Origin: Sedimentisphaerales bacterium
Lineage (GTDB): Bacteria; Planctomycetota; Phycisphaerae; Sedimentisphaerales; Anaerobacaceae
Reading direction: 5' to 3'
NCBI GenBank assembly: GCA_963708075.1
Contig: OY970194.1
Span: forward strand, 5,664,001-5,728,000
DNA length: 64,000 bases
Shown here: piece after piece, positions 23,253 to 45,487 of the stretch
Numbering within the stretch: position 1 is the first letter of the stretch
Layout of the letters: the number at the start of each line of letters is the position of its first letter
Translations under genes and position numbers: made by a program
The notes under the pieces: generated by a model
Database searches by the model: none
What the model was told of the DNA's origin: nothing
What the model saw: the letters and a program-made list of their open reading frames with translations, nothing else

Positions 23253-24094
23253 GATCAGCACACGACATTGACAATCGCATCAGGCAGCTACACCTGAGGG
23301 CCAGCGATGCTCTCGATGCCCGTGTTCATGCCGGCATCGACAGGGCACTGGCCGACAAAGAGAAAAACACGCATCCTGTGATAGGGAGAACGATTATGGC
23401 TCATCCAATCATGAAGTTGGCGGCAGTGGCGGCGGTGGTCATTGCCGGGCTGTTCGGCCTGAATATCATCAGTATGCCGCACGGCGGCGTGGCCTGGGCG
23501 GCGATACCCGGCCACATCGGCGAGATCGACACCCTCATGTTCCGTCTGACCATCGGCGTCGGCGGAGACGATACGGCCAAGACTATACCTACAGGCCAAT
23601 GGACCTTCTACCTGTCAGAGCGCCACGGCTTTCGCATGGACATCGGCGCCGGCGAGGGGGCTGTCGCCTCGTGGTACGTCGCCCCCGGATCAGACACGCT
23701 GGTCACCGTGATTCCCGGCGAGAAGAAGTGGTCGAAGCGCCTGCTCTCGCCGGAGGAGCGAGCCAAAGCGCTCGAGGAATACGAAGACCCGGCAGACTAC
23801 ATCAATCGTTTTCTGGCTCATGGGTACACAGAGCTTGGCCGGTCGGTGATCGACGGCATTGAAGTCGAGGGAATCGAGGTGACTGACCCGCCCACGGATG
23901 GCGAGAAGCTCCAGAACGCCGTAGGCAGATTGTGGGTGGATGTCAGAACGGAACTGCCCATCCGAATCGAAATTGAAGGTATGGCCGGCGGTCAGGCGGT
24001 TCAACGGCTCATGGAATTCAAGTGGGCAGAGGCCGTGGACCCCGCCGCCTTCGAGCCCAATATCCCCAGCGATTACACGCCGTTGGGCGAGTGA
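23249..24094 (+). CDS. Putative anti-sigma factor: single TM helix plus LolA-like periplasmic domain
   Basis: ATGA overlap with sigma; TM KLAAVAAVVIAGLFGL; LWVDVRTELPIRIE; FEPNIPSDY. Confidence 0.75.
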   Translation: MRSAHDIDNRIRQLHLRASDALDARVHAGIDRALADKEKNTHPVIGRTIMAHPIMKLAAVAAVVIAGLFGLNIISMPHGGVAWAAIPGHIGEIDTLMFRLTIGVGGDDTAKTIPTGQWTFYLSERHGFRMDIGAGEGAVASWYVAPGSDTLVTVIPGEKKWSKRLLSPEERAKALEEYEDPADYINRFLAHGYTELGRSVIDGIEVEGIEVTDPPTDGEKLQNAVGRLWVDVRTELPIRIEIEGMAGGQAVQRLMEFKWAEAVDPAAFEPNIPSDYTPLGE

Positions 24095-24124
24095 GCTATT
24101 GCTCAAAGCACAGATGTTTGAACT

Positions 24125-24221
24125 CCGGGTGGCAGCGGCAAGCGGAGCGCAGTGGAGCTTGCCGATGGTGTTACGCATCTCAGGAGCCATCGGCAAGCTC
24201 GCGCTTGCCGCTGCCACCCGG
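24125..24221. repeat. REP/MITE-like nested palindrome, copy 1
   Basis: CCGGGTGGCAGCGGCAAGCG...CGCTTGCCGCTGCCACCCGG with inner stem GAGCTTGCCGATGG/CCATCGGCAAGCTC; related copy at 52125. Confidence 0.8.
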
Positions 24222-24366
24222 CACAGTGCCCTAAAATCTGCCCAGACACCGCCCACTCGTCAGGCACTATATTCATCGAAGAGATCCTCTCCGTAAGGTA
24301 AAATCACCTCAACCAACGTCATACTGGTGACAATCGGTTGTCAAGCAATGCTTGGGCGGATCGCGG

Positions 24367-24912
24367 ATGCTCGAAGACAGAAGACTCCTGTGGCGGCTGA
24401 AGCGCGGCGACAAGGACGCGCTGCGGCTGATCTATGAACAGCACGAGGGCGGTCTGTTGACTCTGGCTGCCAACCTCCTGCACGATCCTGCGACCGCGGA
24501 GGACGTGGTTCAGGATGTGTTTATCGCCCTGGTGCGTTCTGTGCCCCGGCTGCAGCTTCGCCGCACGCTCCGGGCCTATCTGGCCACCGCGGTGGCCAAC
24601 CGCGTGCGGGATTGCTATCGCAAGAGGTCCCGGGAACGGCTGGTCCCCATCGAGGACGCCGGCCGGGTCGCCGCGGGCTCCGACGGGCCGGTGCAGATGG
24701 TAATCGACGACGAGCAGATGCGAAAGCTCAGATCGGCCCTGGAGGAACTGCCCTACGAGCAGCGCGAGGTCATCATGCTCCGCATGCACGCGGACATGAA
24801 GTTCAGAGAGATCGCAGAACACCAGAATGTGACAGTCAAGACCGCTCTGAGCCGGTACCAGTACGGATTGAACAAACTCCGTTCGATTCTGAACGGCGAG
24901 GTGTCAAAATGA
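24367..24912 (+). CDS. ECF sigma factor (paralogue of 22707)
   Basis: MLED start, AEDVVQDVF, LRAYLATAVAN, LPYEQREV, SRYQYGLNKLR. Confidence 0.92.
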   Translation: MLEDRRLLWRLKRGDKDALRLIYEQHEGGLLTLAANLLHDPATAEDVVQDVFIALVRSVPRLQLRRTLRAYLATAVANRVRDCYRKRSRERLVPIEDAGRVAAGSDGPVQMVIDDEQMRKLRSALEELPYEQREVIMLRMHADMKFREIAEHQNVTVKTALSRYQYGLNKLRSILNGEVSK

Positions 24913-26492
24913 CCGTGAACGATCCTTTGGAAAACATGCTTCGGAAGTTGCGTTACCAGGCCGCCGCCGAGCGACGGCAGGAAACGCTTTCGAACATCTC
25001 CGATGTGATGGATGAGTTTCAGGAACAAGTCCCGACGGCAGGTCGGCCGCAGATATGGAGACTGACCGTGAACACCCGAGTCGGAAGGCTGGCCCTGGCG
25101 GCGGCTGTGATTCTGACCGTGCTGGGCGGCGTCACCTTCTGGCCTGGGGGCAGCGACACCAGCGGCAAATGGTGGCTTGGCTCACGCGCGGCGTGGGGCC
25201 AGGAACTGCTCAATTCCCTGGAGAAGATCGATGCCGTGATCTACCGCCAGCGGGTTGGCCGCGTCAGCGATTTCGGCTTGCCGGAGATGAGCCGTGGCTG
25301 GGAGCGGCGCTACAACGCAAAGGATCGGTACCGTCGGGACCGCTACGACGACGGGGTGAACATCATGAACACCCAATGGGTTTTCCCCGATGGAAACGAT
25401 CTGCGGATGGTCGAAGTCTCGTACGAGTACGAGTGCTACTTCGAACGGAAGAACGAGGCCTACGGCTTTATCGAGGATTTCACCGAGAGGATGCGATCCT
25501 ACGTCCGGCTTCTCGACAAGGCAGATCGCATTCTCGACACGCAAGTATTCAACGGCCGGGAATGCATCGGCTTTGAGATCAGCACCGCCAAGTATGGCAA
25601 TAATCCACAGGGCCCATTCGACCGCATCTGGTTCGATGTGGAAACGAGGCTCCCCGCGAGGATCGAGAGGCACCGCCCGGATTCCGGCTTCGACGCGCAC
25701 GTGGATTTCGGCTTCGATGCGGCGGAGACGATGATCATTATTCACGATCAATTCCAGTATCTCGCGAAGGTGCCTATGGATCTGTTCATACCGGCAATTC
25801 CCGCCGGCTATGTCAACGCCTTTCCGGACGATATCCGCACGGCAAGAGACAAAGAGAAGAAGGGCGAGATGATCGTTGCCCAGGTGCCCGAGGGCCTCCA
25901 AGAGCGGATCGTCGCCGCCTTGACAGCCGTGGACACCGGGGCCTATACCGAAGGGGACGCGCGTATCTGTTTCACGAAGAACGCCTGGCGTAACGATCGT
26001 CCTTATGGGGGCGAGACTCAGTATACCCTGTGGTATGTTCTGAAAGGGGCATTGCCTGAGGGACCGTTCGAGCTCACCGACGGCCTCGGCGTGACAGAAA
26101 CCCTGGTGGATTTCACAGAGAAGACGTATCGGATCACCGATCACACGGGGCAGCAGCCGCCCCGTCATCCCATGACTCATATCTTCTTCCGCGCGGGCCT
26201 CATCGACAGGGCGGATCGATTCTACGAGTCTGCGGAGATCGATGGCATCAAATGCTTCGGCTTCGACGTCAGCGCCAAGAAGTACGGCAACAACCCGGAT
26301 GGCGCATTCCATCGTGTCTGGTTCGATGCGGCGACGCATCTGCCCGTGCGGATGGAGACTCATTGGCCGGACGGCGACGGCACCGGCGTGAGCACCACTG
26401 TCCAGGAGCACTTTGACTGGGACCCCGAGCTGCCTGAGGGTTTCTTCACTGCCCAGGTTCCGGCGGGATTCACCTTAGACGCAAAGGAGTAA
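24909..26492 (+). CDS. Putative anti-sigma factor with two tandem LolA-like domains
   Basis: ATGA overlap; TM RLALAAAVILTVLGGV; duplicated KYGNNPxGxFxRxWFDxxTxLPxRxE. Confidence 0.75.
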   Translation: MTVNDPLENMLRKLRYQAAAERRQETLSNISDVMDEFQEQVPTAGRPQIWRLTVNTRVGRLALAAAVILTVLGGVTFWPGGSDTSGKWWLGSRAAWGQELLNSLEKIDAVIYRQRVGRVSDFGLPEMSRGWERRYNAKDRYRRDRYDDGVNIMNTQWVFPDGNDLRMVEVSYEYECYFERKNEAYGFIEDFTERMRSYVRLLDKADRILDTQVFNGRECIGFEISTAKYGNNPQGPFDRIWFDVETRLPARIERHRPDSGFDAHVDFGFDAAETMIIIHDQFQYLAKVPMDLFIPAIPAGYVNAFPDDIRTARDKEKKGEMIVAQVPEGLQERIVAALTAVDTGAYTEGDARICFTKNAWRNDRPYGGETQYTLWYVLKGALPEGPFELTDGLGVTETLVDFTEKTYRITDHTGQQPPRHPMTHIFFRAGLIDRADRFYESAEIDGIKCFGFDVSAKKYGNNPDGAFHRVWFDAATHLPVRMETHWPDGDGTGVSTTVQEHFDWDPELPEGFFTAQVPAGFTLDAKE

Positions 26493-26496
26493 TCTC

Positions 26497-28396
26497 ATGT
26501 ACCGCTACTTGACGAGCATTCTCATCATCACGTGTGGATTGTGCTGTGGCAGCCCTGTAAGCGGGGCGGCCTCGAATGCGGGTCCCCAGCCGGCCTGTGT
26601 CGATTCCGACTCGGATGGGTTGGAGGATTCCTTCGAGGCGAAGCTGGGGACTGATCCCGCACGCCCCGACTCCGACGGCGATGGATTCTGCGACTACGAC
26701 GAACACTGCAAGTACCGGACGGACCCGACGCAGAAGGACACCGACGGCGACGGCACGCCGGACGCGGATTGGGGAGAACGCAGGGAGTATGCCTACACCA
26801 TACGGGCTATCTGCGAGATCAGGCCGCCGAACACCGTGGAGGGGATGAATGACCTTTATCAGGATGTCCGTCCGGCAGGCAGACAGGCCCGGCTGGAGGA
26901 CGGCACCGTCGTGGAAATCCTGCTCTTTCCCTTCTCCTCGCCGTACGTGTTTGCACAGCCCTATCCCCGTACCGCGATTCCTGAATCTCTGCAGAAGTAC
27001 GTCGAGCGCGACCTGAGCATGAACTTCTCGGATGAGATGCAGAAGGAAATCAAGGAAAAGATCGTGCGCGGTGCGACGACAGATGTCGAGGCCACCGAGA
27101 AGATTCTTGCCTGGATGGCCGGCGGAGACCAGCCTGGCGAACCGTCTTCCTGAGTTTGCCTTTTTCAACGTGGTGGACAACAAGATCGTCTGGCGGCAAT
27201 CGTTGGGCAGTCCGCAGCAGGATGAGCAGCTTTTACAGACGAATTTCTTCGGGGACTCGATGTTCAAAAGCCGCCTGCACGGGACCTGCAGCTCGACGGC
27301 TACCTTGCGGGCGACCATGCTGCGCGCCGCCGGCATCCCGACGCGCCTGATTCAGAACCTGCCCCTGATCAACCGGTACGAGAGAGATCCCGAACCTCTC
27401 TTGGAGGCGCTCCGCATGAGGGTCATGGCGGGAGGGTACGACTGGGGACAGGGTGGCGGGGGCGCCAACCACGTCTACAACGAGGTATTTCTGAACAATC
27501 GGTGGATTCGCGTGGACAACGTGATCAACCCCGGGCCATTCGTGGGCGATAAGCTGTTTGTCAGGGTCTACTCGCTGGCAAGCTGGAATGACCGCGCCGA
27601 CTGGCGTACGCCGAGACCACAGGAAGAGGGCTGGAATGAGAATCGCGACCTCAGGACACTCGAAGTCTCAGACGCGTACCCGAAATACCCATCCTCTGCC
27701 GCGCTCGCCATCGACATGGCGGTGGAGGATGCGAGTCTTAGCGTAAAGGCGAACGCCGACGGGAGCTTCACCGCGACGATCCGCATCCGCAACAAGGGGG
27801 CCGCGCCGAGCACCGAGTTCGGAGTCCACTTCTTCGCGGGCGATCCTCAGAAGGGGGGAAGACTCTTGGCCACCCACAGTTCCGGACCGATCATGCCGGG
27901 AGGGACCTGGGGTGAGTATAACCCTGAACTTCGCCTGAAGCCCGACGAGGATACGATTGTCGTGATCATCGACCCGGAGGACAGAGTCAAGGAATTAGAC
28001 GAGTCGAACAACAAAGCGTCACACAGGATCGAGGGACGCCTGCCCAAGGAGTCTTCCGCTGCTCAGAAAGCTGGGCCCGCTCGCCAACGCCATTTCGTGA
28101 CCATCGTCCTCGGCGAGGACAAGATGACGTTCCAGGGGCAGGAGGTGACTTGGGAGCAGTTGCCCGCGCTGCTCGAACAGGTGCCGGATCGTCCGCAGAC
28201 TGTTTTGCAGCTCGCCGTGACGTCACGAGACATTGAAAACCGTCAGGACTGGAAGGACACGATCGACCGTTTGGGCACCTTACATTCCAAGTACGGCTTC
28301 GAATACGATAGCTTGATTGGTGTGCATCCCCTGGGCACGAAAGGTGGGCCATCGCAGCTCTTGTCCTCCGAGGGATCTGCTGAGGCGCAACCATAA
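26497..28396 (+). CDS. Secreted transglutaminase-like protein with DxDGDG Ca-binding repeats, CARDB-like domain and ExbD-like tail; +1 frameshift near 27122
   Basis: DSDSDGL, DSDGDGF, DTDGDG; GTCSSTA...RAAGIPTR, NHVYNEV, WIRVD triad; VIIDPEDRVKELDESNN; ORFs 26497-27153 and 27032-28396. Confidence 0.75.
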
Positions 28397-28457
28397 CTCC
28401 GGGCTGGGTCTTTTCCGTTGCCGTTCCAAGCCCGAGCCGCTACCTTGTCCCGACAGC

Positions 28458-28967
28458 ATGGACATCAGGGACAAGAACATCGTGTTGATCGGTATGCCGG
28501 GCGTGGGCAAGAGCACCGTGGGTGTGCTGCTGGCCAAGGCCCTCGGCCGGTACTTTCTCGATACCGACGTCTTCATCCAGGCAATTCAGGGCCGGTTCCT
28601 GCAGGAGATCATCGACAGCGATGGCCTGGCCGCCTTTTGCAGGATCGAAGAGGATTATGTCCTTTGCACCGACCTGACGAACGCCGTCATCGCCACCGGC
28701 GGCAGCGTCGTCTATAGTGAGAAGGCGATGCAGCACCTGTCCGCCCACGGCGTCATCGTCCATCTCGACCTGCCCGTAGACAAAATCGAGCAGCGCATCC
28801 GCAACCTCCCCACCCGTGGCGTGGTCATGGAGAAGGGCCAGACCATCCGCTCCCTCTACGACCAGCGCCAGCCCCTCTACCGCCACTACGCCCAAGTCAC
28901 CATCGACTGCACCGGCAGGAATCACGAGCAGATCGTCTCGGAGATCATCGGAAAGCTCGCTGATTAG
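28458..28967 (+). CDS. aroK: Shikimate kinase
   Basis: NIVLIGMPGVGKST, FLDTD, VIATGGS, RQPLY. Confidence 0.9.
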   Translation: MDIRDKNIVLIGMPGVGKSTVGVLLAKALGRYFLDTDVFIQAIQGRFLQEIIDSDGLAAFCRIEEDYVLCTDLTNAVIATGGSVVYSEKAMQHLSAHGVIVHLDLPVDKIEQRIRNLPTRGVVMEKGQTIRSLYDQRQPLYRHYAQVTIDCTGRNHEQIVSEIIGKLAD

Positions 28968-29002
28968 AATCCCCGCCTTCTTCTGACGGCACCGGATTTT
29001 TC

Positions 29003-29030
29003 GCGCCTACTTTTTCCGCTGAAGCCCGAC
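29003..29030 (+). promoter_or_regulatory. Putative ECF promoter GCGCC-N20-GAC
   Basis: Same motif and spacing upstream of paralogous sigmas at 42062 and 43848. Confidence 0.55.
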
Positions 29031-29052
29031 AATAGAGTGACGACAGGACAAT

Positions 29053-29608
29053 ATGGCCTCAGTCAGGAGAACAGACAATCGAATCGGAACTGAGACTGGT
29101 ACAGGCCGCTCAGGTGGGCGATCTCGACAGCTTCGGTAAGCTGTGTGAGCGGTATTATGCCCCGCTGGTCGCGATCGCGTACGGCGTGCTCAGGGACCAT
29201 CAACTGGCGGAGGACGCCGCCCAGGAAGCGTTTGCCAGGGCCCTCGTCAGCCTGGGCAGATTGAAAGAGCCTGGCAAATTCGCTCCCTGGCTGGCGCAAA
29301 TCTGCCGAAACGCTGCCGCCGACATAGCACGGGCACGAAAGCCACAGGGCAATCCGGAAGACTTTGCGCAGGCGCCGTGCCGCGGCACAGATGAATTCGC
29401 GAGTCAAGTCGTCAGGCAGGCCATTGACCGGCTGCCGGCGTCCCTGAGGGAGGTCGTCGTCCTGCGCTATCACAATAATTGTTCGTACGAGCAAATTTCC
29501 GCCGTGCTGGGCCTGTCGAAGATGGCCATCAACGGTCGGCTCACACGGGCCAAACGAAAACTTGCCAGGTACTTGCGCCGACAAGGCGTGCTGGAGGATA
29601 TGCCATGA
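29053..29608 (+). CDS. ECF sigma factor; start uncertain (ATG 29053 with probable +1 indel near 29080, or GTG 29114)
   Basis: GDLDSFGKLCERYY, LAEDAAQEAF, FAPWLAQICRN, INGRLTRAKRKL; sigma-like ELRLVQAAQ continues upstream of 29114 with no in-frame ATG. Confidence 0.85.
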
Positions 29609-30945
29609 ATACCGAGAAGCATGATGACAAGATCGATCAACTCATTCGCACCGCCATCGGCGGGGACTCTGCGCCCTTCGATTTCCAGCGGTGGAAGCAG
29701 GAGCACCAGTGTGAGGTCACTACGTTCCACTCTGAGGTACAGCACCTGGAACCACAGACGACTGTCTTGCCGGAAAGGAGGCGAACGATGATACGTACGC
29801 TCAAACTCGCGGCCGCCGCAGCGATCTTCGTCGGCGTGTGCCTGGGATTGCCCCGTCTCGGCCATAAGCAGGAGAGCAACACGGCGTTCGCGCAAATTCT
29901 TGAGCAGATTGAGCAAGCCAAGGCCATGACCTGGCGGCTCACCTTTTATAACCACGTCACCAGCAAGGACGGTCAGCGAATATGGGTGGAGACGGAGACG
30001 CGGGAGATGGCGTACAAGGCCCCCGGTCTGTATCGAGAGGTCCTGCATCCGACCGGTCACGGGCAGATCGAACACACGTGCATCACGGATGCCGCGAATC
30101 TCAAGAGCTTGAGTCTGGTCCCGGCGGACAAGAGGGCCTCCATCCGTGAGTTGGCGGTGACAACCCAGGATCCGCGCGGACCATTTACATCGGCCAGGGA
30201 GCACATGAACAACTCCGACCTTGAATGGGTGGGAAAGAAAACGACCGCCAATGGAGAGGTGAACGTCTTTCGAAGAGCATTCAAGCAGCCCGACGGCCGG
30301 GACTGGAGTTATGATTTCTGGGTCGATGCGAAAACGAAGCGACTCGTCGCCGTCCAAATACCCGGAGCGGATATCTATGATCCCGAAGCGGACCCCGCAC
30401 GCAGGAACCCCATCGAGAAGGAATGGTCCACGATGACGCCCGCGTGCTGCCTGCAGTACGATATCGATTTCGATGCGGAGCTGGATGATTCACTGTTCAG
30501 TCTGGAACCGCCCCCGGGTTACACCATCCGGACCGAGCAGCGTGCCCAGGTGACGGAGAAGGAGATGGTGGATTACCTCGGCATCATGGCCGAGTACAAC
30601 GACAAGACGTTTCCTGATCGGCCCTACTCGATTGACAGCGACCGGCTGAATGAGATCTACGACAAGGCAAAAGAGGACCGAACTGCGGCCGAGCAGAAGC
30701 TCCTGGAAACGGTGGACCACTACAAGATGGCGAGTCTGAACATGATGCCCACCGGTCATTTCATCGAGGATCACACGGTGAAGGGGAGTTTCCGGTACCT
30801 GGGCAAAGGCGTCAAGCTCGGCGACAAGGACCGCATCGTCTGCTGGTACAAGCTCAAGGACGCCGTCACTTACCGCGTCGTCTACGGCGATCTGAGCATC
30901 AAGGACGTGCCCGCGGAAGACCTGCCGTTGCCTGTAGAACCATAG
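29605..30945 (+). CDS. Putative anti-sigma factor: TM helix, LolA-like domain and extra C-terminal domain
   Basis: ATGA overlap; KLAAAAAIFVGVCLG; AFAQILEQI; FWVDAKTKRLV; LDDSLFSLEPPPGY; YRVVYGDLS. Confidence 0.75.
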   Translation: MNTEKHDDKIDQLIRTAIGGDSAPFDFQRWKQEHQCEVTTFHSEVQHLEPQTTVLPERRRTMIRTLKLAAAAAIFVGVCLGLPRLGHKQESNTAFAQILEQIEQAKAMTWRLTFYNHVTSKDGQRIWVETETREMAYKAPGLYREVLHPTGHGQIEHTCITDAANLKSLSLVPADKRASIRELAVTTQDPRGPFTSAREHMNNSDLEWVGKKTTANGEVNVFRRAFKQPDGRDWSYDFWVDAKTKRLVAVQIPGADIYDPEADPARRNPIEKEWSTMTPACCLQYDIDFDAELDDSLFSLEPPPGYTIRTEQRAQVTEKEMVDYLGIMAEYNDKTFPDRPYSIDSDRLNEIYDKAKEDRTAAEQKLLETVDHYKMASLNMMPTGHFIEDHTVKGSFRYLGKGVKLGDKDRIVCWYKLKDAVTYRVVYGDLSIKDVPAEDLPLPVEP

Positions 30946-30978
30946 CTCTCCCGGCACATAAACCACTGCATCTTACAG

Positions 30979-31016
30979 CGCCAGGCTCTGCACGAACGAG
31001 CCTGGCGTCTTCTTTT
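30979..31016 (+). terminator. Intrinsic terminator
   Basis: CGCCAGGCTC...GAGCCTGGCG followed by TCTTCTTTT. Confidence 0.7.
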
Positions 31017-31087
31017 CACGGAAGCTGTTCCATGCTATAAGGTGGCAAGTGTCACGATACGAGCAGTGATTCGATACGGAGCAGCCG

Positions 31088-35167: not shown

Positions 35168-35177
35168 CAGGCGGCTC

Positions 35178-36638: not shown

Positions 36639-36827
36639 GGTGCCTCCTGTTCTTATCCGGAACTTCGTGCGTTTCTTCTATCGGACACCATACCACGATT
36701 TCCCGGAATCTCCAGCTTTAATGGGAAATCAGACAATACTTGCGTTGCATGACCGATTTGATACTATGGTGTCGCCCGTGACAGGCACGGCTCAAGAGAT
36801 AGAAAACGCTTTTTCTGGAGGGCAGAA

Positions 36828-37145
36828 ATGGCAATGGTGAGTCACAGAAGATCTTTCATCAGTCTGGTGGTTCTATTGGTGGGCATATCCCTCTGCGGCG
36901 GCTGCACCGACTTGAAATATCATGAGATTTTCGGGGCCGGGCTTCTCGGCGCCGGGGTCGGAGCCATCGTCGGACACCAATCCGACGAGTGCGGCGCGGG
37001 CGCTGCCGTTGGAGCGGCAGTCTTCGCCACCGGCGATCTGCTGTGCCAGATCGACCACCTCAACGAACAGAAAAAAGTGGAAAAGACCGCGGAGGAGGTC
37101 GCCAGGGGAGACTCTCTGCTCGATCACATCCAGTGGGACCAATAG
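36828..37145 (+). CDS. Small glycine-zipper lipoprotein
   Basis: RBS GGAGG; LCGGC lipobox; GAGLLGAGVGAIVG...GAGAAVGAA. Confidence 0.75.
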   Translation: MAMVSHRRSFISLVVLLVGISLCGGCTDLKYHEIFGAGLLGAGVGAIVGHQSDECGAGAAVGAAVFATGDLLCQIDHLNEQKKVEKTAEEVARGDSLLDHIQWDQ

Positions 37146-37175
37146 TGGCAACCGAAGTGCATCAGCTCGTGTACA

Positions 37176-37811
37176 TCAGTGCGGGTGACCAGCAGGTTCG
37201 GCGGACTTTTCGCTCTCCACGTTATGGCCGGCTTGGCCGACGGCGTCGGCGTGAAGTCGCTCGACGTAGTGCGTAAACTCCACGTATGCGCTGATGAACT
37301 CACGTCCTGCGGCGACATTCTCGTCGGCGTGTTTCTTGTTTTCCATTGTTTCGACGAAGCGGCGATGGATGCCATCGCTGACAAGCTTCACAATCTCCTG
37401 CGTCAGCCCTTCCACGGATCCGGTTTCGAGGGCCTTGTCCGATGCAGCAATGACCGGCTCGACCTGTCCGGCGGGTTTCAGGCCTGTGTACGGCGCGCCT
37501 TCGCCCGCGCGATGCAATCGTACCAGCGTCTCAAAGAAGTACCTGTCCGCCAGGTCCTTCGCCTCCGGGCTCAACCCCCTGACCGCCAGGGTCTTCTTGA
37601 ACGCCTCGCGAATTTCCGTCTCATGCTCTGCCTTGACCCACTTGAGGACAGGCGTCACGTCGCCCTTGCCCAGGGCCGCCTGCGCCGTCTTTACCACCGG
37701 CCCATCCATCGTGTCACAGTGCCCATATGCTCGGTCTTCCGGCCCCAGCCATCCCATGCCGGCCAGGAAGACTACAGCAGACACAATTCTCGTTGTTCGC
37801 TTTGCCGTCAT
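37176..37811 (-). CDS. DUF6448-like exported protein
   Basis: RBS AAAGGAG; signal then HCDTMDGPVV; FFETLVRLHRAGEGAPYTGLKP. Confidence 0.8.
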   Translation of the reverse strand: MTAKRTTRIVSAVVFLAGMGWLGPEDRAYGHCDTMDGPVVKTAQAALGKGDVTPVLKWVKAEHETEIREAFKKTLAVRGLSPEAKDLADRYFFETLVRLHRAGEGAPYTGLKPAGQVEPVIAASDKALETGSVEGLTQEIVKLVSDGIHRRFVETMENKKHADENVAAGREFISAYVEFTHYVERLHADAVGQAGHNVESEKSAEPAGHPH

Positions 37812-38231
37812 GCCACAACTCCTTTGACATAGGGACTTGATGTATCCAGGACGCACAGATCGCCCCGTGCAATACAGCATACGATACGATCCATTCCATG
37901 CGGAGTTCCCGGTTCGCAAAATTTCTTCGATGTGCTTCCCCACGAGGGGAAGGACCCGCCCTGAGGATTCTCTCCTTTTCTCTTGACACACCTTCCACGG
38001 GCGCCGATAATTCCACGTACACCAGTGAGCGAAGACATCTTGTGCGATTGTGCGTTTCATTTGTGCTCTTTCAGTCGTTGGAGAATCCGAGCCGGCGAGG
38101 ATCCCACGGGCGTTTTCTCACCTGACACACGTGTGCCACGGTGCACCCGTGGGGCATCGAGCGGCGCGAGGCCGAATCTCCGACTGATACAGATGGACAG
38201 GCCTGCGTACTACTTTTGAAAGGGGAGAACC

Positions 38232-38495
38232 ATGAGTAAGAAGAGAGTCACGTTGCCGCAGACATCCGGGTCGGTATTCCAGGTCGCAGAGCATTTTCCG
38301 CTGGAGCGCATGGGAGATCCGGCGCCCTGGTTCCGGATCGAGGAGTTGATGAGGGACTTGACCCGAGCCCAAATCACGCAGATCAATCAAAAACAGATGG
38401 AGGCGTACTCACAGATCGTGCAGCTTCAAAGCCAGATCATGGACATCAGAGCGAGAGCCATCAGAGAGATCACCGAGATTCAAAGAGGAAGGTAG
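38232..38495 (+). CDS. Small protein with GDPAPW motif and Gln/Ile-rich helical tail; candidate radical SAM substrate
   Basis: RBS GGGGAG; 87 aa; lies directly upstream of, and co-oriented with, the B12 radical SAM gene. Confidence 0.75.
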   Translation: MSKKRVTLPQTSGSVFQVAEHFPLERMGDPAPWFRIEELMRDLTRAQITQINQKQMEAYSQIVQLQSQIMDIRARAIREITEIQRGR

Positions 38496-38715
38496 CCGGG
38501 GGCAGGACGAGTGCGAACACCCAACCGATTCAGACGAACGCAGGCCTGTCCGTCTGCATCGCCCCGGGATGTGCCTCGACAAGAGTCAGCTACTTGTGGG
38601 GAGAAGAACGCCATGTCGGACCGCTCCGTGGTCGTCGGCTACGCGGTGTCTCGGCGATGGCCGCGGCCGCCAAGCCGGGCCGTTGCATGCGAAGCTTCAG
38701 ATCGAAGGAGAGGTT

Positions 38716-40278
38716 ATGCGTGACCCGCGAGCGGCCATTGTGGCGTTTCTGGAGCAGGACAACCTCGGAGTCGGATATCTCGCGTCTATGCTGCTGCAGA
38801 ACCACATCGATGTCGGTATCGTGGACTTCTGTCTCGGCAGGCAATCCATCCTGGAGTATATCCTGCGCACCAAGCCATCCATCGTGGGATTCTCCATCAT
38901 ATTCCAGTACCACATTCATGACTTCAGAGATCTGATGGCGTACCTGAGGACCCACGGTGTCCGTTGTCATTTCACCGCCGGGGGACACTATCCGAGCCTC
39001 AGATATGCCGACCTCCTGGAGCTGATCCCCGACCTGGATTCGGTCGTGCTCTTCGAGGGTGAACGTACGTTCCTGGAGCTGGTCCGCTCCAGCCGCCTGA
39101 AAGGGAAGTGGAAGTCCCTGGAGGGGATCGCCTACCGGCAACGCGGGCGCGCCGTCGCCAATCCGCTGCGTCCGTTGGAAAGCGACCTGGACCGGTTCCC
39201 GCCGCCGGTTCGTCAACCTCTGAAAGAATGCGCGTTCGGCAGGAAATATGCGACCATTCTGGCCGGGCGGGGCTGCTACCACAATTGTGCGTTTTGCAGC
39301 GTTCGCCGGTTTTACTCCGGACCTCCCGGGCCGGTGAAACGAGTCAGACGGCCCGAGATGGTGGTGGCCGAAATGGAACTGATGCATCGTGACCTCGGTT
39401 GCTCCATATTCCTGTTTCAGGACGATGACTTTCCCGTGGCCGGGCGCGCGGGAAAGCAATGGGTGGCGGAATTCTGCAACCTGCTGGTGCAGAAGGACCT
39501 TCACAGAACGGTCATGTGGAAAATCAGTTGCCGGTCTGACGAGGTTCAGGGCGACCTTTTCCGCAGGATGAAAGAAGCCGGCTTATTCTTCGTCTATATG
39601 GGCATTGAAGATGGGACAGAGGAGGGCCTTGCCCTCATGAACAAACGCGTCAGTGCCGACACACACTGCCGGGCGGTGGAGACCCTCAAGAAGCTCGGCA
39701 TGGAGTATGATTTCGGTTTCATGCTCTTTCATCCTGACAGTACGTTCCGGTCTGTCTCGCAGAACCTCGGTTTTCTCAAACGCATTTGCGGCGACGGCTC
39801 CTCGCCCATCACGTTCGGCAAAATGCTGCCGTATGCGGAGACACAAATCGAGTACAGACTCAAGAACGAGGGAAGGCTGAAAGGTCCACCGGGTTTTGAG
39901 GACTACGATTTCGCGCATCCTTCCCTGGATTCCCTGTATCGTCTCATGTCAGAGTGCTTCCGCGAATGGGTCGGCCGGCCCGATGGGCTGCTCAATCTCG
40001 CCAGGTGGGCGCGCTATTCGCTGGGCACGTATCACAAGTACTATCGGAGGACCCGCAAGTCGGCGGCCCTGGAGCGGGCCATGAGAGGGTGTATCGCTCA
40101 GAGTAACCGGTACTTCATCAAGACCGCCAGGGAACTTGTGGCCCTGTTCGAGTCAGCGCGCAATGGCGCCGATGCGGCCGTCTTCGCGTCCATCAGGGAT
40201 ACCGTCACGGACAACCATGCCGAGTTCAAGCAGCGATTGATCCGGGTGATGGATGACATCCGAGCCCTCGCGGAGTAG
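38716..40278 (+). CDS. Cobalamin-binding radical SAM protein (class B methyltransferase-like)
   Basis: NLGVGYLAS, TAGGHYPS, FEGE; GRGCYHNCAFC; FQDDDF; MGIE; GFMLFHP; RBS AAGGAGAGG. Confidence 0.92.
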   Translation: MRDPRAAIVAFLEQDNLGVGYLASMLLQNHIDVGIVDFCLGRQSILEYILRTKPSIVGFSIIFQYHIHDFRDLMAYLRTHGVRCHFTAGGHYPSLRYADLLELIPDLDSVVLFEGERTFLELVRSSRLKGKWKSLEGIAYRQRGRAVANPLRPLESDLDRFPPPVRQPLKECAFGRKYATILAGRGCYHNCAFCSVRRFYSGPPGPVKRVRRPEMVVAEMELMHRDLGCSIFLFQDDDFPVAGRAGKQWVAEFCNLLVQKDLHRTVMWKISCRSDEVQGDLFRRMKEAGLFFVYMGIEDGTEEGLALMNKRVSADTHCRAVETLKKLGMEYDFGFMLFHPDSTFRSVSQNLGFLKRICGDGSSPITFGKMLPYAETQIEYRLKNEGRLKGPPGFEDYDFAHPSLDSLYRLMSECFREWVGRPDGLLNLARWARYSLGTYHKYYRRTRKSAALERAMRGCIAQSNRYFIKTARELVALFESARNGADAAVFASIRDTVTDNHAEFKQRLIRVMDDIRALAE

Positions 40279-40317
40279 AGGAAGCATCTCCGTCTCTTGC
40301 GCGAGCACAGGGTGCCT

Positions 40318-41304
40318 CTATCCAAAGTGCAGTTCGACGACGTCTTTATCGTGGAGGACGTGGGTGAGGTGGACGCTTTGGCCGGGGTAGACGTCGGTGC
40401 CCCAGATGCGGGCGGATTTGAGCTTTTCGGCCAATTCCCGGTGGATCACGGTGGCCATATCCTGGACGGTAGCCCCGGTAGGCAGCGTGAAAGGGGCCTC
40501 CATGTCCGCCGGCTTGCCGGGCGGCTTGGCGTACACGCGAATGATGTTCAACATGCGGAACAGCAGCTCAGCGAACTTGTCAAGGCCCTCGGCGGTCTGC
40601 GTGGAGACCTGGAGAAACTCCATCGGCTTGTCGAACGAGTTCCTGGCCAGCTCGAACGCCCCGGCCGGTGCGATGTCCGCCTTCGTGCAGATGCACACCG
40701 CCTTTCTGCCCAGTGCATTGCCCTGGCCATCCACGGCGGGGGTCTTCTCATCCAGCAACAGGTTGCGGGATTCGAGAAAGTCCATCAGCACCAGGGCCTG
40801 CTCCTCGATATCCTGCGACAGGTCGATCACCACGGCGATGATATCGCCGTTGCGGTAGGTGCCCACCTGGCCGGGCGCAACGAAGTCGGCGGTGATTGGC
40901 GGCATGTCCACGAGCTGAATCTGCACGTCCTCATACTTCACCATCCCCGGCACAGGGGCGTGGGTGGCGAATGGGAAATCGGCAACGACGACCTTGGCAT
41001 TCGTCAACGTGGCCAGCAGACTGCTCTTGCCTGTATTGGGCAGGCCCAGCAGGACGACCTGTCCGGCCCCGGTTCGCGGCACATGGAATACATCCGCGTG
41101 CTTACCGCCCTTTTTCTGCTGGGTGGCGGCCTCCCTGAGGCTGCTAAGCTTGCGGCGAAGATCCGCCCTCAGGCCGTCAGTGCCCTTGTGCTTGGGCATT
41201 ACCGACAGCATCTGCTCCAGCGCGAGGATCTTCTCCTCGTTGGTCTGGGCACTGCGGAACCATTCCTCCGCCTTCTTGTAGTCTGGTGGTAAGTTTGCAG
41301 GCAC
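40318..41304 (-). CDS. DRG-like OBG-family GTPase with TGS domain
   Basis: MPANLPP, PKHKGT, GLPNTGKSS, FPFAT, DMPP, TKAD, IRVYAK, HVLHDKDVVELH. Confidence 0.9.
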   Translation of the reverse strand: MPANLPPDYKKAEEWFRSAQTNEEKILALEQMLSVMPKHKGTDGLRADLRRKLSSLREAATQQKKGGKHADVFHVPRTGAGQVVLLGLPNTGKSSLLATLTNAKVVVADFPFATHAPVPGMVKYEDVQIQLVDMPPITADFVAPGQVGTYRNGDIIAVVIDLSQDIEEQALVLMDFLESRNLLLDEKTPAVDGQGNALGRKAVCICTKADIAPAGAFELARNSFDKPMEFLQVSTQTAEGLDKFAELLFRMLNIIRVYAKPPGKPADMEAPFTLPTGATVQDMATVIHRELAEKLKSARIWGTDVYPGQSVHLTHVLHDKDVVELHFG

Positions 41305-41617
41305 CGGTCAATCACACCCTGGTTTACGGTTCAAAGAACGCCGTGGACCTCGCAAGATCACGTTGGATAAACATGAGCTTCTCTTCTATATAGCGACAGC
41401 CAACAGGATCGTCAAGGATCGCAATCCAATCGGGCGGCGCCCATCCGCATTGAGGCAAGACTTCAGGGCCCCGCGCCCTGCGGGCTTTTATAAGCCTTTT
41501 GTTCCACGCAATCAGGAGAAAGCTACCGTTCGGACTTGGCATGTTCTCCGTATCTGTGTGCGTTAGAGGTGTCAGTTTCTATCTTGAGAAGGACATTAGA
41601 AGCGAAAGGAGCGAACC

Positions 41618-41872
41618 ATGAGAAACATCGATCTGAATACCGCTTCAAAAGAGGACCTGCTGGAGGTTTCAGGCATTGATCCGTCTCTCGCTGATAGAAT
41701 CATTCAATTCCGCGATGAGCGTGGCGGGATCGACAGTGTGGATGAATTGAGAGAGGTCGGCGGCATCAGTGAGTCAACGCTCGAGGAGCTCCGAGCCGCG
41801 GCCGGCGAGAGTGAAAGCGCGGATGTTGAGAGTGAAGGTATCGAAGAAAGCGAAGAAGAGGAAGAGTGGTAA
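41618..41872 (+). CDS. ComEA-type helix-hairpin-helix protein with acidic tail
   Basis: IDLNTASKEDLLEVSGI...LADRIIQFR...ELREVGGI; RBS AAAGGAG. Confidence 0.85.
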   Translation: MRNIDLNTASKEDLLEVSGIDPSLADRIIQFRDERGGIDSVDELREVGGISESTLEELRAAAGESESADVESEGIEESEEEEEW

Positions 41873-42061
41873 TCACAGGGCATGAAAGGGGCGCGCTGCA
41901 GCGCGCCCTGGCATTTCCAGGCACATCATTCCAGACAATTCAAGCTCTACACCCCCAGTCCCGAAAAGGACAGGGGTGGCTTTCAAACCTGCTCACATAG
42001 CTTCAGAAGCTCGACGTTATCCCTGATTTGCACTGCTTTTGTTCATTCATCCAGCGATTTT

Positions 42062-42089
42062 GCGCCGGTTTTTCCCTGCAGATGAGGAC
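42062..42089 (+). promoter_or_regulatory. Putative ECF promoter GCGCC-N20-GAC
   Basis: gcgcc ggtttttccctgcagatgag gac. Confidence 0.55.
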
Positions 42090-42135
42090 ATAATAGTGAA
42101 AAACAGAGCAGCTCTGTAGTACTTGACGAGTGAGC

Positions 42136-42667
42136 ATGACAAACGCTGAGGACCCCATCCTTGTCCGGCGAGCCCTGCAGGCCGATCCGGAGAGCTTCGG
42201 GCAGCTATGCAAGCGGTATTACCCCTTGCTGGTGGCTGTGGCGGATTCAATCCTGCTGGATCATCATCTGGCGGAGGACGCCGCTCAGGAAGCCCTCGCG
42301 GACGCCTGCCGGCAGCTCCCGCGGCTCAAGGAGCCAGAGCGTCTTCGGGCCCTGGGTGGCCGCGATCTGCCGAAACGTTGCGAAAGATATGCTCCGGGAC
42401 CGGCGGAGGCAGCGAGTCCCCGTTGCCGACTGCGAACCGCAGGAGATAGACTGCCGGCAGGATGGGCAAGATGAAGCTCTGGCCGAAGCGTTACGCCATC
42501 TGCCGCAACCGTTGCGAGAGGTGGTCTACCTGCGCTTCTACAACGGGCTGAGCTATCAGCAAATCGCCGGGGTCCTCGGCGCATCACAGGAATCCATTGA
42601 TGGCCGGCTCCGCCGGGCCAAGAAGAAGATCGCGGCGTTCATGAAGGCAAAGGGCTTTGAGCCCTGA
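42136..42667 (+). CDS. ECF sigma factor; +1 frameshift near 42340
   Basis: ESFGQLCKRYY, LAEDAAQEAL in the first frame; FGPWVAAICRN, IDGRLRRAKKK in the next frame. Confidence 0.85.
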
Positions 42668-42674
42668 GGTGTGA

Positions 42675-43760
42675 TTGTCTATGGTTCGAAGAGACGACAT
42701 CGACCGGCTGGACGAACTGCTGGCAAAGCACTTGCGGCGCGAGCCCGCTGCGTTTGATTTCGAGCGGTGGGCACACAGGTTTCCCACGGACGCAAAGCTC
42801 GTGCAATCCGGTTTCCCTCAGTCGGTCTCAAGGCGAAGAACTCAACTGGTGCAGATTGGGAGGTGTATTATGACAAGTCGATATACGAGACTCGCCGGCG
42901 TGGCGGCGGTGGTTCTGGTGACGCTTTCGTTCCTGTTCCCCGGCGGCAACGGAATCGTGCCGGAGAGCGTCGCGTGGGCCGATGTCCAGAAGGCCATGGA
43001 ACAAGTGCACACCATCCGCGTCACCGGCACGCGGAACTGCTTCTTCGGGGACGACGAGACGCCGACGTACAAACTGGGCCTGGAGAAGCTGTTCTCCTTC
43101 TCACGCGGGTACGTTGACAGGACCTTCACGGAGGACGGACAGTTGATCATCGAATTCACCTACGATCTCCCAACCGGGACGATGACGGTCCTGTTTCCCA
43201 CCCAGAAGAAGTACTACCGGATGCAGGCGCCGCAGGCGTTCCGCGAAGAGACAAGCCGGGTGACATTTGAGGAGTTCGGCCGACGGCTGTTTCTCTCCGG
43301 TGACTATCGCGTGGTCGGTCCCAACGACGTGCAGGGGATCCGGGCCATCGGCTTCGAGGTCTCCGATCTCTTCAGTCGTCTCAGCACAGGACTGGGGGCC
43401 GGTGGCAAACTGATGAATTTTTTCCTCTCTTTCGGCCAGTCGAGCGCGCGGATGTGGGTGAACCCGGAGACCCGGCTGCCCATCCAGTTGGAGGCCGAGG
43501 GCAAGATCAACCCCTGCTTAGTGACCGGCTATCGCGAGATGACGCTTCGCGAGATCGACGACCGGTGGGACTTTGGCGTGGAGCTCGACGGCGTCCAGTT
43601 CCTTCCCGCCATCCCCGAAGACTATGAGGCGTTGGCTGTGCCGGTGGCCTTGAAGGTCCAGGCCGGTCTATACGCCGGGGCGGGCGCGGTCGGGCCGGTC
43701 TGCCTGGCCGTAAGACGCTCGCGCCGTCGCACGCGCACAGTGCCTGTGACAGCAACCTGA
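42675..43760 (+). CDS. Putative anti-sigma factor with LolA-like domain and C-terminal hydrophobic/Arg-rich tail
   Basis: FDFERW; TM RLAGVAAVVLVTLSFL; VAWADV; MWVNPETRLPIQLE; FLPAIPEDY; tail VCLAVRRSRRR. Confidence 0.75.
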   Translation: MSMVRRDDIDRLDELLAKHLRREPAAFDFERWAHRFPTDAKLVQSGFPQSVSRRRTQLVQIGRCIMTSRYTRLAGVAAVVLVTLSFLFPGGNGIVPESVAWADVQKAMEQVHTIRVTGTRNCFFGDDETPTYKLGLEKLFSFSRGYVDRTFTEDGQLIIEFTYDLPTGTMTVLFPTQKKYYRMQAPQAFREETSRVTFEEFGRRLFLSGDYRVVGPNDVQGIRAIGFEVSDLFSRLSTGLGAGGKLMNFFLSFGQSSARMWVNPETRLPIQLEAEGKINPCLVTGYREMTLREIDDRWDFGVELDGVQFLPAIPEDYEALAVPVALKVQAGLYAGAGAVGPVCLAVRRSRRRTRTVPVTAT

Positions 43761-43798
43761 TTTTCCGTACGCATGATCCTAATTCAGGGTATCCTTGT

Positions 43799-43836
43799 GA
43801 AAGCCTGGCGGTGAACTGCCGGGCTTTCTCGTTTTT
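43799..43836 (+). terminator. Intrinsic terminator
   Basis: GAAAGCCTGGCGG-tgaa-CTGCCGGGCTTTC followed by TCGTTTTT. Confidence 0.65.
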
Positions 43837-43847
43837 GCAGGATTCCT

Positions 43848-43875
43848 GCGCCCGGATTTCGTGGGCGGGAGAGAC
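43848..43875 (+). promoter_or_regulatory. Putative ECF promoter GCGCC-N20-GAC
   Basis: gcgcc cggatttcgtgggcgggaga gac, 14 nt before GTG 43890. Confidence 0.55.
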
Positions 43876-43889
43876 TTACTTGTAGAAAT

Positions 43890-44435
43890 GTGACAGAGAA
43901 TACGGATGCCATCCTGGTCGCGGCGGCCTTGCGGGGCGATGCCGAGAGCTTCAGCCGGCTGTGTGAGCAGTACTATCCGGCCTTGGTGGCGATTGCGTAC
44001 TCCCGGTTGGCCGACCGGGGCTTGGCTGAGGATGCGGCTCAGGAGGCGCTTCTGGCCGCCTATCGCGACATCGGGAACCTGAAGAAGGCAGGACATTTTG
44101 CCGGATGGCTGGCGGTGATCTGCCGGAACATTGCCATCGACATGGCCAGGGCGCGAGCCCGGGAAAAGCATGCTGGAACTGAGGATTGCAGTCCCGTTTT
44201 GAGTCCCTCCTGCAATGAGGACGATACCATTGGCATCGTGCGAGAGATTATCCTGCGGCTGGAGCCGGATATGAGGGACATCATTTACCTCAGGTACTAC
44301 AACCAAATGGGCTATGGCCAGATCGCGCAGATGCTCGGCATCACCGAAGAAGCGGTCAATGGCAAACTCAGGCGGGCCAGAGACACGATCCGCCGGGAAC
44401 TGCAACGACGGGCATCGATGGAGACGGAACCATGA
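43890..44435 (+). CDS. ECF sigma factor
   Basis: GDAESFSRLCEQYY, LAEDAAQEA, FAGWLAVICRN, VNGKLRRAR. Confidence 0.92.
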   Translation: MTENTDAILVAAALRGDAESFSRLCEQYYPALVAIAYSRLADRGLAEDAAQEALLAAYRDIGNLKKAGHFAGWLAVICRNIAIDMARARAREKHAGTEDCSPVLSPSCNEDDTIGIVREIILRLEPDMRDIIYLRYYNQMGYGQIAQMLGITEEAVNGKLRRARDTIRRELQRRASMETEP

Positions 44436-45487
44436 AACACAGGAATGATGAGGACCGGCTCGACGAAATCATCGCCCGGGCCGTCGATCTCGGCAAGGTC
44501 GAATTCGATCGAAAAGCGTGGCTGGACAGGCTGGCCGCACAAGGGCCAAGCCTCGACAGCCGCCAAATGCACCACACGAAATCTGAACCCCACAAGAAGA
44601 TATGGAGAACCGTTATGGAAAGCAGAGTTACGAAATACTCCGTGGCTGCGACGATTCTTGTCGCCGCGTCACTTGTCTTGTTCGATCCGTTGGGTCTGTT
44701 TGGCGGCCGGCACGGCGTCGTTCTGGCCGAAGTGGTCGAGAGAATGAATGACGTCAAGACGATGATACTCAAGGAAAAGAGAGTGTACTACGAGATAGGC
44801 AAAGACGAGCCTTTGCTGAGCACAAATGTGGTCAAGTACCTGTCCTTCGATCGCGGCATCGTCGACGAGCAATACGGCGAAGATGGACGCCTTCAGGGCC
44901 GGGCCTACATCCTGAAGGACCCGCCGCAGATCACCATTGTGCTTGTCGAAGACAAGAAGTACGTGAAGCTGCCGCTGACGGATTCCGCGGCCCGCCTGGT
45001 GGAGCGCCTGACGCCCAAGGCCATCGTGGAGTACTTCAAAGCGGGGGACTGCAAGGACTTGGGCACGGCGACGATCGACGGGCATGAGGCGACGGGGTTT
45101 GAGACGAGAGATACGGGACTCTTTCCCATCTCCGGCCAGTACCGGTTCCTGTTCCCGATCAAAGACATCAGGTGGCAGTTCTGGATCAGTGAGGACCTGC
45201 CGTTTCCCGTGACGGCCGACCTGGAGGTCACGACCGGCCGAGGTCTTTTCACGGTCTTCAAAGAGCTCCGGATCACTTGTCACGACTACGACATGGAGTA
45301 TGACCCGAATATTCCTTCGACGGTGTTCGATCCGAACATCCCCGCCGACTACACGCCGCTGAACCTGGAATCCACCGTGAAAGAGAGCGCCGCCTGGCTG
45401 GGCGTCGGGGGCCTGCCGGTCGTCGGAATCGTGGTTCGCCACCGTCGGAGGCGCACGCATCGTCGCGGGGTCCGTATGGCGACCTGA
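44432..45487 (+). CDS. Putative anti-sigma factor with LolA-like domain and C-terminal hydrophobic/Arg-rich tail
   Basis: ATGA overlap; TM KYSVAATILVAASLVLF; FDPNIPADY; tail LGVGGLPVVGIVVRHRRRR. Confidence 0.75.
   Translation: MKHRNDEDRLDEIIARAVDLGKVEFDRKAWLDRLAAQGPSLDSRQMHHTKSEPHKKIWRTVMESRVTKYSVAATILVAASLVLFDPLGLFGGRHGVVLAEVVERMNDVKTMILKEKRVYYEIGKDEPLLSTNVVKYLSFDRGIVDEQYGEDGRLQGRAYILKDPPQITIVLVEDKKYVKLPLTDSAARLVERLTPKAIVEYFKAGDCKDLGTATIDGHEATGFETRDTGLFPISGQYRFLFPIKDIRWQFWISEDLPFPVTADLEVTTGRGLFTVFKELRITCHDYDMEYDPNIPSTVFDPNIPADYTPLNLESTVKESAAWLGVGGLPVVGIVVRHRRRRTHRRGVRMAT

Follow-up and report, generated by a model that had tools for sequence, protein, structure and literature searches.

Extracytoplasmic function (ECF) sigma factors paired with anti-sigma factors are among the commonest signalling devices of bacteria and are modelled as one sensor per gene. 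In the sigma-E system of E. coli, the ECF anti-sigma factor RseA is bound and shielded by RseB. RsiV, an anti-sigma factor, is described as being cut at site 1 by signal peptidase (PMC4183432). In-frame internal starts have been reported to yield working truncated bacterial sensors, for example ArcB-C of E. coli, and the same work describes 5'-proximal internal starts of E. coli that remove a signal sequence (10.1101/520783); a review names ClpB, IF2, SafA and sigma S among the cases of internal initiation (PMC13515050). Here we analyse five ECF sigma/anti-sigma gene pairs in a 64,000-nucleotide (nt) window, contig positions 5664001-5728000 of the single-contig, 7.5-Mb genome (60% G+C) of a Sedimentisphaerales bacterium of the class Phycisphaerae (GCA_963708075.1, contig OY970194.1). 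Each of the five anti-sigma genes carries, ahead of its membrane helix, an in-frame GGAG and start codon that are conserved among homologues and probably form a functional internal initiation site making a protein without the sigma-binding head.

An internal start-like site in five anti-sigma genes

Behind each of the window's five ECF sigma genes lies, on the same strand, an open reading frame (ORF) of 281-527 amino acids (aa). Pfam Sigma70_r2 and/or r4_2 matched all five upstream genes above the cut-off, gene 4 with region 4 only. In four of the five pairs the anti-sigma ATG lies at -4 relative to the end of the sigma stop codon and overlaps it, and in the fifth it lies at +13. All five anti-sigma ORFs have an N-terminal part of 49-63 residues, one hydrophobic segment and a larger C-terminal part. 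Scans with Pfam and NCBIfam gave no family at cut-off for any of the five anti-sigma proteins. The zinc-type HxxxCxxC motif of class I anti-sigma domains was absent from the five window proteins; this motif is not required of all anti-sigma classes.

A sequence-only reading of the window had reported a GGAG exactly 7 nt before an in-frame start codon in every anti-sigma gene, just upstream of the transmembrane segment, and had proposed that starting there would remove 50-65 residues. The sites were confirmed letter for letter as GGG AGA ACG ATT ATG (start at 23396), TGG AGA CTG ACC GTG (25068), AGG AGG CGA ACG ATG (29788), GGG AGG TGT ATT ATG (42870) and TGG AGA ACC GTT ATG (44615). The first G of GGAG is 11 nt upstream of the start codon and in frame in 5/5 sites, and 7 residues beyond each site comes a hydrophobic run that is 15-18 residues long. 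In genes 1 to 5 the internal start codon stands at residue 50, 54, 62, 64 and 62, close to the proposed range.

The same reading had noted that CGN codons dominate in this DNA, which was correct. In the codon background of 2270 long ORFs of this genome, AGA made up 5.1% and AGG 9.1% of Arg codons, and GGG 18.3% of Gly codons. Since AGA and AGG together account for only 14.2% of Arg codons, five AGR codons in a row (R, A or G) have a probability of about 6e-5. The 1.24 million codons of the long ORFs contain in-frame GGAG-N7-ATG only 55 times, and several of these 55 look like genuine starts within ORFs that were drawn too long. Searching the genome with a profile of the window's five sigma genes gave 78 sigma-type ORFs. 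For a count independent of the peptide motif, 46 ORFs of this genome were taken, each located behind a sigma gene and with a membrane helix near its beginning. An in-frame GGAG plus ATG or GTG within 16 codons before the helix was present in 22/46 of them, compared with 1/119 equal-sized control windows from the same ORFs.

Codon choice, start-site character and conservation across the class

Homologues were collected with a profile built from the alignment of 21 copies from this genome. The profile matched 18/21 genomes of the closest set (this one and 20 relatives), 37/201 genomes of the class and 13/301 genomes of the phylum; six of these 13 lie inside the class, so that the family is rare outside it. 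An additional single-protein search of related loci added 4 loci to the sampling. Codons were read at the aligned columns of 198 distinct sites carrying 50 genome labels, and the 196 sites with an open upstream frame represent 48 Phycisphaerae genome labels. GGAG and a start codon at the same spacing were found in 165/196 of these homologous sites. Within the genus itself 116/129 sites had both, with at least one such site in 13/13 genomes; in other genera of the family or order the counts were 32/39 sites and 15/16 genomes, and in other orders of the class 17/28 sites and 11/19 genome labels. Seven loci came from other classes. Only in L162 does the site stand at the aligned position, and in L164 it is displaced by one codon; L167 resembles a normal gene start, the columns are missing from L163, and the remaining three are without the site.

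The sequence-only reading had argued that the first residue varies while GG is kept and that selection acts on the nucleotides rather than on the peptide. Both statements were upheld by the codon counts in the homologues when set against other codons of the same ORFs. The first codon was NGG in 181/198 sites (TGG 94, AGG 57, GGG 25, CGG 5), and the amino acids that result, W, G and R, have nothing in common except NGG codons. At the Arg position, CGN is well below its background frequency in the homologues: AGR made up 166/178 Arg codons, and the 198 sites divide into AGA 145, AGG 21, AGT 9, AGC 5, CGN 12 and 6 others. Where Ser replaces Arg it is encoded by AGY (Y, C or T) in 14/14 cases and never by TCN. 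Gly before Arg is GGG in 25/28 cases, and the 3 exceptions stand in rows without GGAG. In the same ORFs, other Arg codons were AGR in 27%, Gly codons were GGG in 17-19% and Ser codons were AGY in about 40%. The Met position likewise does not drift to non-start codons, with ATG at 170 and GTG at 5 of the 198 sites. After clustering at 50% identity, with one representative each, 104/131 clusters kept GGAG and ATG/GTG; at 35% identity 42/52 kept them, and AGR was used in 42/49 Arg codons (p=1e-17).

A pause at a rare codon was considered as a cause of the codon choice, AGA being the rarest Arg codon, and was rejected because TGG, GGG, AGG and AGC/AGT share GGAG and not rarity. AGC was the commonest Ser codon in the codon-usage comparison.

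Retention of GGAG goes with retention of the start codon, and loss with loss. Both were present in 165 of the 196 sites, GGAG alone in 3, the start codon alone in 9 and neither in 19 (Fisher p=8e-17), and several apparent exceptions are one-codon alignment shifts, as in window gene 3. The 16S tail of this genome ends in ...CACCUCCUUUCU, to which the GGAG of the sites is complementary. When GGAG was located before the first ATG of 2262 long ORFs, its first G peaked at -11 (132), -12 (108) and -10 (81), so that the spacing of the internal sites, -11, is the modal Shine-Dalgarno spacing of this genome's genes.

The surroundings of the sites also resemble those of a start. Third codon positions are A/T-rich from -15 to +20 around the internal start. 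The mean folding energy of 40-nt segments was -3.9 kcal/mol at the site, compared with -6.5 to -12.7 at distances of at least 24 nt (n=162). When 113 genus sequences were resampled synonymously with the codon usage of the genome, 101/113 were less folded at the site than their resamples (-4.8 vs -8.3), whereas control windows at -60, +90 and +150 showed no folding shift. With a start-site matrix trained on the first ATGs of this genome, 20 internal ATG sites of the genome scored a median of 10.1 bits, which corresponds to the 92nd percentile of first ATGs; of internal in-frame ATGs taken at random, only 0.14% attain it. In these genes the starts of the long form scored lower, with a median of 7.7 bits. 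Database records reflect both starts: the homologues of 233-235 aa (P0024, P0073, P0097) begin exactly at the internal Met in 3/3 fetched, and most relatives' records of anti-sigma gene 1 homologues are 270-284 aa long. Gene callers are thus split between the two starts, and the databases hold truncated and full-length versions of the family.

Two loci with stops inside, L071 and L075, were examined as natural split versions of the gene and rejected; they are unrelated ordinary gene starts with signal peptides. What the family profile had matched in them was GGGAGA or CGGAGA, then ATG, then a signal peptide, L071 being a long periplasmic-looking protein and L075 a short ORF. That the family profile matched ordinary gene starts indicates that the internal block is itself start-like.

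The two predicted products

The stretch upstream of the internal start has the properties of coding sequence. Its frame is open in 196/198 sites. In the copies of this genome an ATG stands at -4 from the sigma stop in 10/27, and 16 further copies have a different start between -26 and +15; a Shine-Dalgarno sequence for the long form (GGAG, GAGG, AGGA or AAGG, 8-15 nt upstream) was found in 21/26 copies. Among 36 homologues of anti-sigma gene 1, the head residues M1, A18 and L22 are invariant, and R25, V26, H27, I30 and L34 are conserved in at least 90%. When residues 1-49 of gene 1 were modelled against regions 2 and 4 of its sigma factor, the pair scored 0.76 and the best control 0.01; the score mark for such models was reached by 116/157 solved complexes and 2/215 mismatched pairs. 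The runs shared at least 93% of contacts, and the predicted local distance difference test (pLDDT) value of the partner was at least 75. The model supports a putative binding of the cognate sigma factor by the head of gene 1, and the earlier suggestion that the short form would lose the sigma-binding domain agrees with it, as the first 49 residues are those modelled onto sigma. Four paralogues of this genome have an HxxxCxxC zinc-type head, and 3/4 of them carry the GGAG-plus-ATG site. Because the site also follows these heads, it belongs to the junction and is independent of the type of head.

The short form would begin with Met and about six polar residues including Lys or Arg, followed by the hydrophobic run. 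This run starts 4-8 residues past the internal start (at residue 7 in 21/26 copies of this genome) and is 13-30 residues long, 15-18 in most copies. As read from the sequences, a small-x-Ala motif follows about 10-14 residues past the run; [AVS]-x-A ends 28-40 residues past the Met in 118/162 sequences, as against 19 and 23 in control windows. In the AWA of gene 1, A82 and W83 are invariant among the 36 homologues and A84 is conserved in at least 90%. Such an N-terminus resembles a signal anchor or signal peptide of the Sec type. The sequence-only reading had held that internal initiation turns the transmembrane helix into an N-terminal signal or anchor. The basic n-region and the h-region agree with this part of the proposal. 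The small-x-Ala motif is frequent and comes late: it lies 34-37 residues past the Met, compared with 22-28, as read from the sequences, in four N-termini of this genome that look secreted. The motif may just as well be structural or the site-1 cleavage site of the full-length protein, and if it is the latter it provides no evidence for a secreted short form.

The C-terminal domain had been called LolA-like, a description that held for the fold of gene 1, while no Pfam or NCBIfam family reached its cut-off. The model of gene 1 had a pLDDT of 73 overall; in blocks of 10 residues the values after residue 80 were mostly 73-94, and a single block had 60. In Foldseek, residues ~80-281 matched LolA 2w7q with E=7e-10; LprG and RseB were also listed, the RseB chains 2p4b, 2v42 and 2v43 being among the matches, and the template modelling scores were modest (0.3-0.6). 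By this model the periplasmic domain of gene 1, the gene for which the assignment is made, is of a LolA/LprG/RseB-like fold. One source names homologues 'outer membrane lipoprotein-sorting protein', and one homologue comes from Anaerobaca lacustris. The part after the internal Met ranges from 104 to 553 residues in length, and the periplasmic domains are very different.

The site combines a conserved Shine-Dalgarno sequence with a start codon coupled to it and placed at the proper distance, in surroundings that are A/T-rich and unfolded. Internal initiation is the simplest account of this combination, and we judge it likely that the site is functional and makes the head-less form. Under the mechanism that we propose, the first start, placed across or beside the sigma stop and preceded by a separate Shine-Dalgarno sequence, would give the full-length protein with a cytoplasmic sigma-binding head of 49-63 residues, a helix and a periplasmic sensor. 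The second start would consist of the in-frame GGAGR, 7 nt and ATG (rarely GTG) in the A/T-rich, weakly folded stretch before the helix. Ribosomes loading there would make a protein without the sigma-binding head, which is by definition the head-less form; the former membrane helix would become its Sec signal anchor or signal peptide, and the periplasmic LolA/RseB-like domain would be made alone, either membrane-anchored or released. More speculatively, the short form may titrate a signal, a ligand or the site-1 protease away from the full-length sensor, or might pair with the full-length periplasmic domain as RseB does with RseA; either role could set the threshold of the sigma response. Any particular role, whether decoy, RseB-like partner or released carrier, is much less likely than initiation itself. 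Rather doubtful, in our view, is the wider picture in which a large share of the ECF anti-sigma genes of Phycisphaerae are two-product genes whose head-less sensing domain is exported, released at small-x-Ala and acts as a free LolA/RseB-like carrier or shield that tunes the full-length sensor.

The coordinates of the features in the window are given in Table 1.

Table 1. Sigma and anti-sigma genes of the window and their internal sites (window positions)
Feature	Position	Strand	Remark
ECF sigma gene 1	22707..23252	+	Pfam Sigma70_r2, r4_2, ECF; 181-aa record P0125 100% identical
Anti-sigma gene 1, 281 aa	23249..24094	+	ATG overlaps sigma stop (ATGA)
Internal site, gene 1: GGAG 23385-23388, 7-nt spacer, ATG 23396-23398	23385..23398	+	start = residue 50
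Hydrophobic segment LAAVAAVVIAGLFGL, gene 1	23417..23461	+	predicted membrane helix of long form, h-region of putative short form
AWA motif, gene 1	23492..23500	+	ends 35 residues past internal Met
ECF sigma gene 2	24352..24912	+	Pfam
Anti-sigma gene 2, 527 aa	24909..26492	+	two similar C-terminal repeats
Internal site, gene 2: GGAG, 7-nt spacer, GTG	25057..25070	+	start = residue 54
ECF sigma gene 3	29114..29608	+	Pfam
Anti-sigma gene 3, 446 aa	29605..30945	+	ORF reading
Internal site, gene 3: GGAGG, spacer, ATG	29777..29790	+	start = residue 62
AFA motif, gene 3	29884..29892	+	ends 35 residues past internal Met
ECF sigma gene 4	42161..42667	+	Pfam
Anti-sigma gene 4, 359 aa from ATG 42681 (TTG at 42675)	42681..43760	+	ORF reading
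Internal site, gene 4: GGAGG, spacer, ATG	42859..42872	+	start = residue 64
ECF sigma gene 5	43890..44435	+	Pfam
Anti-sigma gene 5, 351 aa	44432..45487	+	ATG overlaps sigma stop
Internal site, gene 5: GGAGA, spacer, ATG	44604..44617	+	start = residue 62

Some further observations concern the genes of the window. The first ATG of the sigma gene 1 ORF, at 22605, gives 215 aa; the record of this genome and nearly all relatives have 181 aa, and the true start is probably at 22707. In anti-sigma gene 2 the C-terminal repeats read …RIWFDVETRLPARIE… and …RVWFDAATHLPVRME…, and the second of them had a weak DUF1571 match (26.5 bits, cut-off 27). The C-terminal ends of anti-sigma genes 4 and 5 (43662-43757 and 45389-45484) contain a second hydrophobic stretch and then an Arg-rich tail (…VRRSRRRTRT… and …VRHRRRRTHRR…), and anti-sigma gene 1 ends just short of such a tail. 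With these two elements the periplasmic domain may be tethered at both ends, in which case a cleaved short form would stay membrane-bound.

Others concern the family elsewhere in the genome. No free-standing copy of the short form was found in this genome, where the strong matches cover only a C-terminal module of ~180-200 residues (61.6-64.2% identity). In two anti-sigma copies devoid of the internal GGAG, the last 180-200 residues are shared with the next gene downstream, and in one of the two also with an unlinked third gene; of these three other genes, two have a lipoprotein-like signal at their start. The genes concerned lie at ~2639395-2643086 (+ strand) and in R_1272854_1274396, R_1274457_1276929 and R_2727376_2728285 (reverse-complement coordinates). 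A 636-residue ORF at contig positions ~6229955-6231865 (+) matched the sigma profile with E=4.8e-35 and is 31% identical to the periplasmic part of an anti-sigma paralogue; from its sequence it may be a sigma-sensor fusion. Anti-sigma copies seem to be continued in another frame at R_62849 (156 aa) with R_63171_64179 and at F_6363554_6365048 with F_6364896_6365481, which could be due to a frameshift, an assembly error or decay of the copy.

Alternative explanations and comparison with known systems

The computational predictions of the two-isoform idea of the sequence-only reading were all borne out, and the comparison of homologues did not refute it. What these results show is selection at the level of the nucleotides, the character of a start site and conservation throughout a class; from them we infer initiation in cells and a short product of some importance, whose accumulation and release as a free periplasmic effector, decoy or carrier are at the stage of a proposal. 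Several points weigh against this reading. No RNA data set was found for window positions 22600-26500. Because the search profile contains the W/G/R-R-x-x-M columns, the share of family members with the site is inflated and has to be taken as an upper estimate, and the codon-choice tests are unaffected by these columns. Among the weaker hits (<40 bits) the site was present in only 25/44, and in the motif-free count in only 22/46 candidates of this genome. The p-values overstate the evidence because the sequences are related, which clustering reduces and does not remove. The complex model of gene pair 1 may pass through likeness to sigma/anti-sigma complexes already solved. The site may be covered by ribosomes already translating from the first start, which could keep the yield low, and soluble release of the short form is doubtful because small-x-Ala comes late for a signal-peptidase site. 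The preference for AGA over AGG at the site (145 to 21) is not explained by a plain Shine-Dalgarno model, because GGAGG pairs better with the 16S tail; at real starts GGAGA and GGAGG at -11 were found 47 vs 52 times. Nor does such a model account for the Ile that precedes the motif, encoded by ATA at about half of the sites and by ATA in 9% elsewhere in the genus; the preferences for AGA (-7) and ATA (-13) may both reflect the need for an A-rich, unfolded site.

Of the alternatives, the one that survives best takes GGAG as a programmed elongation pause before the helix, which would aid head folding, sigma binding or membrane targeting without a second protein. Shine-Dalgarno-like elements early in E. 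coli membrane-protein genes have been proposed as targeting pauses (PMC4359368), and the element of the anti-sigma genes stands directly ahead of the helix. A pause needs no start codon, yet GGAG and ATG/GTG were kept or lost together (165, 3, 9 and 19 sites); nor does it need exact initiation spacing, RNA structure weaker than the peptide requires, or a basic n-region of 7 residues. Shine-Dalgarno-driven pauses have been questioned by later profiling work. Furthermore, the helix is still unsynthesised when the ribosome is at GGAG, so that targeting cannot yet act on it. We therefore consider a pause improbable.

It is distinctly improbable that the block has another role in RNA or DNA, either as the site of a GGA-recognising RNA-binding protein or as a homology block for the exchange of sensor domains between paralogues. 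Its position fits such exchange, since it lies at the junction between differing heads (short or HxxxCxxC) and very different periplasmic domains (104-553 residues). However, the synonymous constraint is confined to GGAGR, a few A/T-biased third positions and ATG, and the third positions of the helix follow ordinary codon bias, so that recombination would have too little identical sequence to act on. Neither of the two roles accounts for the start codon, the spacing or the signal-peptide-like layout.

Very improbable is a mis-annotation, in which the gene would truly start at the internal ATG and the upstream stretch would be untranslated. Some database records do start at the internal Met, and the internal site outscores the upstream start. 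Against this, the open upstream frame (196/198) begins at the sigma stop with a Shine-Dalgarno sequence of its own, the head residues are conserved, the head was modelled onto sigma, and four paralogues have an HxxxCxxC head. A motif of the peptide alone, with [WGR]-R-x-x-M placed at the membrane interface and the nucleotides themselves without function, would suit the frequency of Trp and Arg at such interfaces and the invariant R47 and M50 of the protein alignment (36 homologues), but it can be dismissed on the codons, with Gly as GGG in 25/28, Arg as AGR in 166/178 and Ser as AGY in 14/14.

An internal start in an anti-sigma gene was not found in full-text searches of the literature, which did not cover the supplementary table of E. 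coli starts in 10.1101/520783, which might list one. In the available text of the ECF classification paper (PMC7826278) the isoforms mentioned are of sigma R only, and that of the review PMC13515050 has nothing on anti-sigma genes. If internal initiation is correct, many anti-sigma genes would also make a sensor-only protein, so that models of threshold, stoichiometry and proteolytic activation would change. The wider two-product picture would add a translational layer to ECF signalling and would be the reverse of the known bacterial internal starts that remove a signal. The site would also be an unusually clean case of amino acids (W, G or R, then R or S) visibly dictated by a ribosome-binding site.

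The anti-sigma sites resemble the internal starts described for ArcB-C and similar proteins in having a Shine-Dalgarno sequence and start in frame, at a domain boundary and conserved in relatives, with an N-terminally truncated signalling protein as the predicted product. Unlike those, they lie in ECF anti-sigma genes and recur throughout a class, with dozens of diverged paralogues having them in one genome. With RsiV and RsiP, as these are described (PMC4183432, PMC8844934), the window proteins share a signal-peptidase-like small-x-Ala shortly past the single helix of an ECF anti-sigma factor, although no Pfam or NCBIfam match links them to RsiV and cleavage here is hypothetical. The RseA-RseB system likewise combines an ECF anti-sigma factor with a periplasmic LolA-fold protein; in the window, by contrast, anti-sigma factor and LolA-like domain form one protein, from which the domain would be separate only by way of the internal start. 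The mitochondrial isoform of FEN1 is reported to arise at a downstream AUG that exposes a cryptic N-terminal targeting signal (PMC3652857), as is predicted here, but by eukaryotic leaky scanning and not by Shine-Dalgarno-driven internal loading. Finally, whereas the E. coli 5'-proximal internal starts are described as removing a signal sequence, truncation of the anti-sigma proteins is predicted to create one from the membrane helix.

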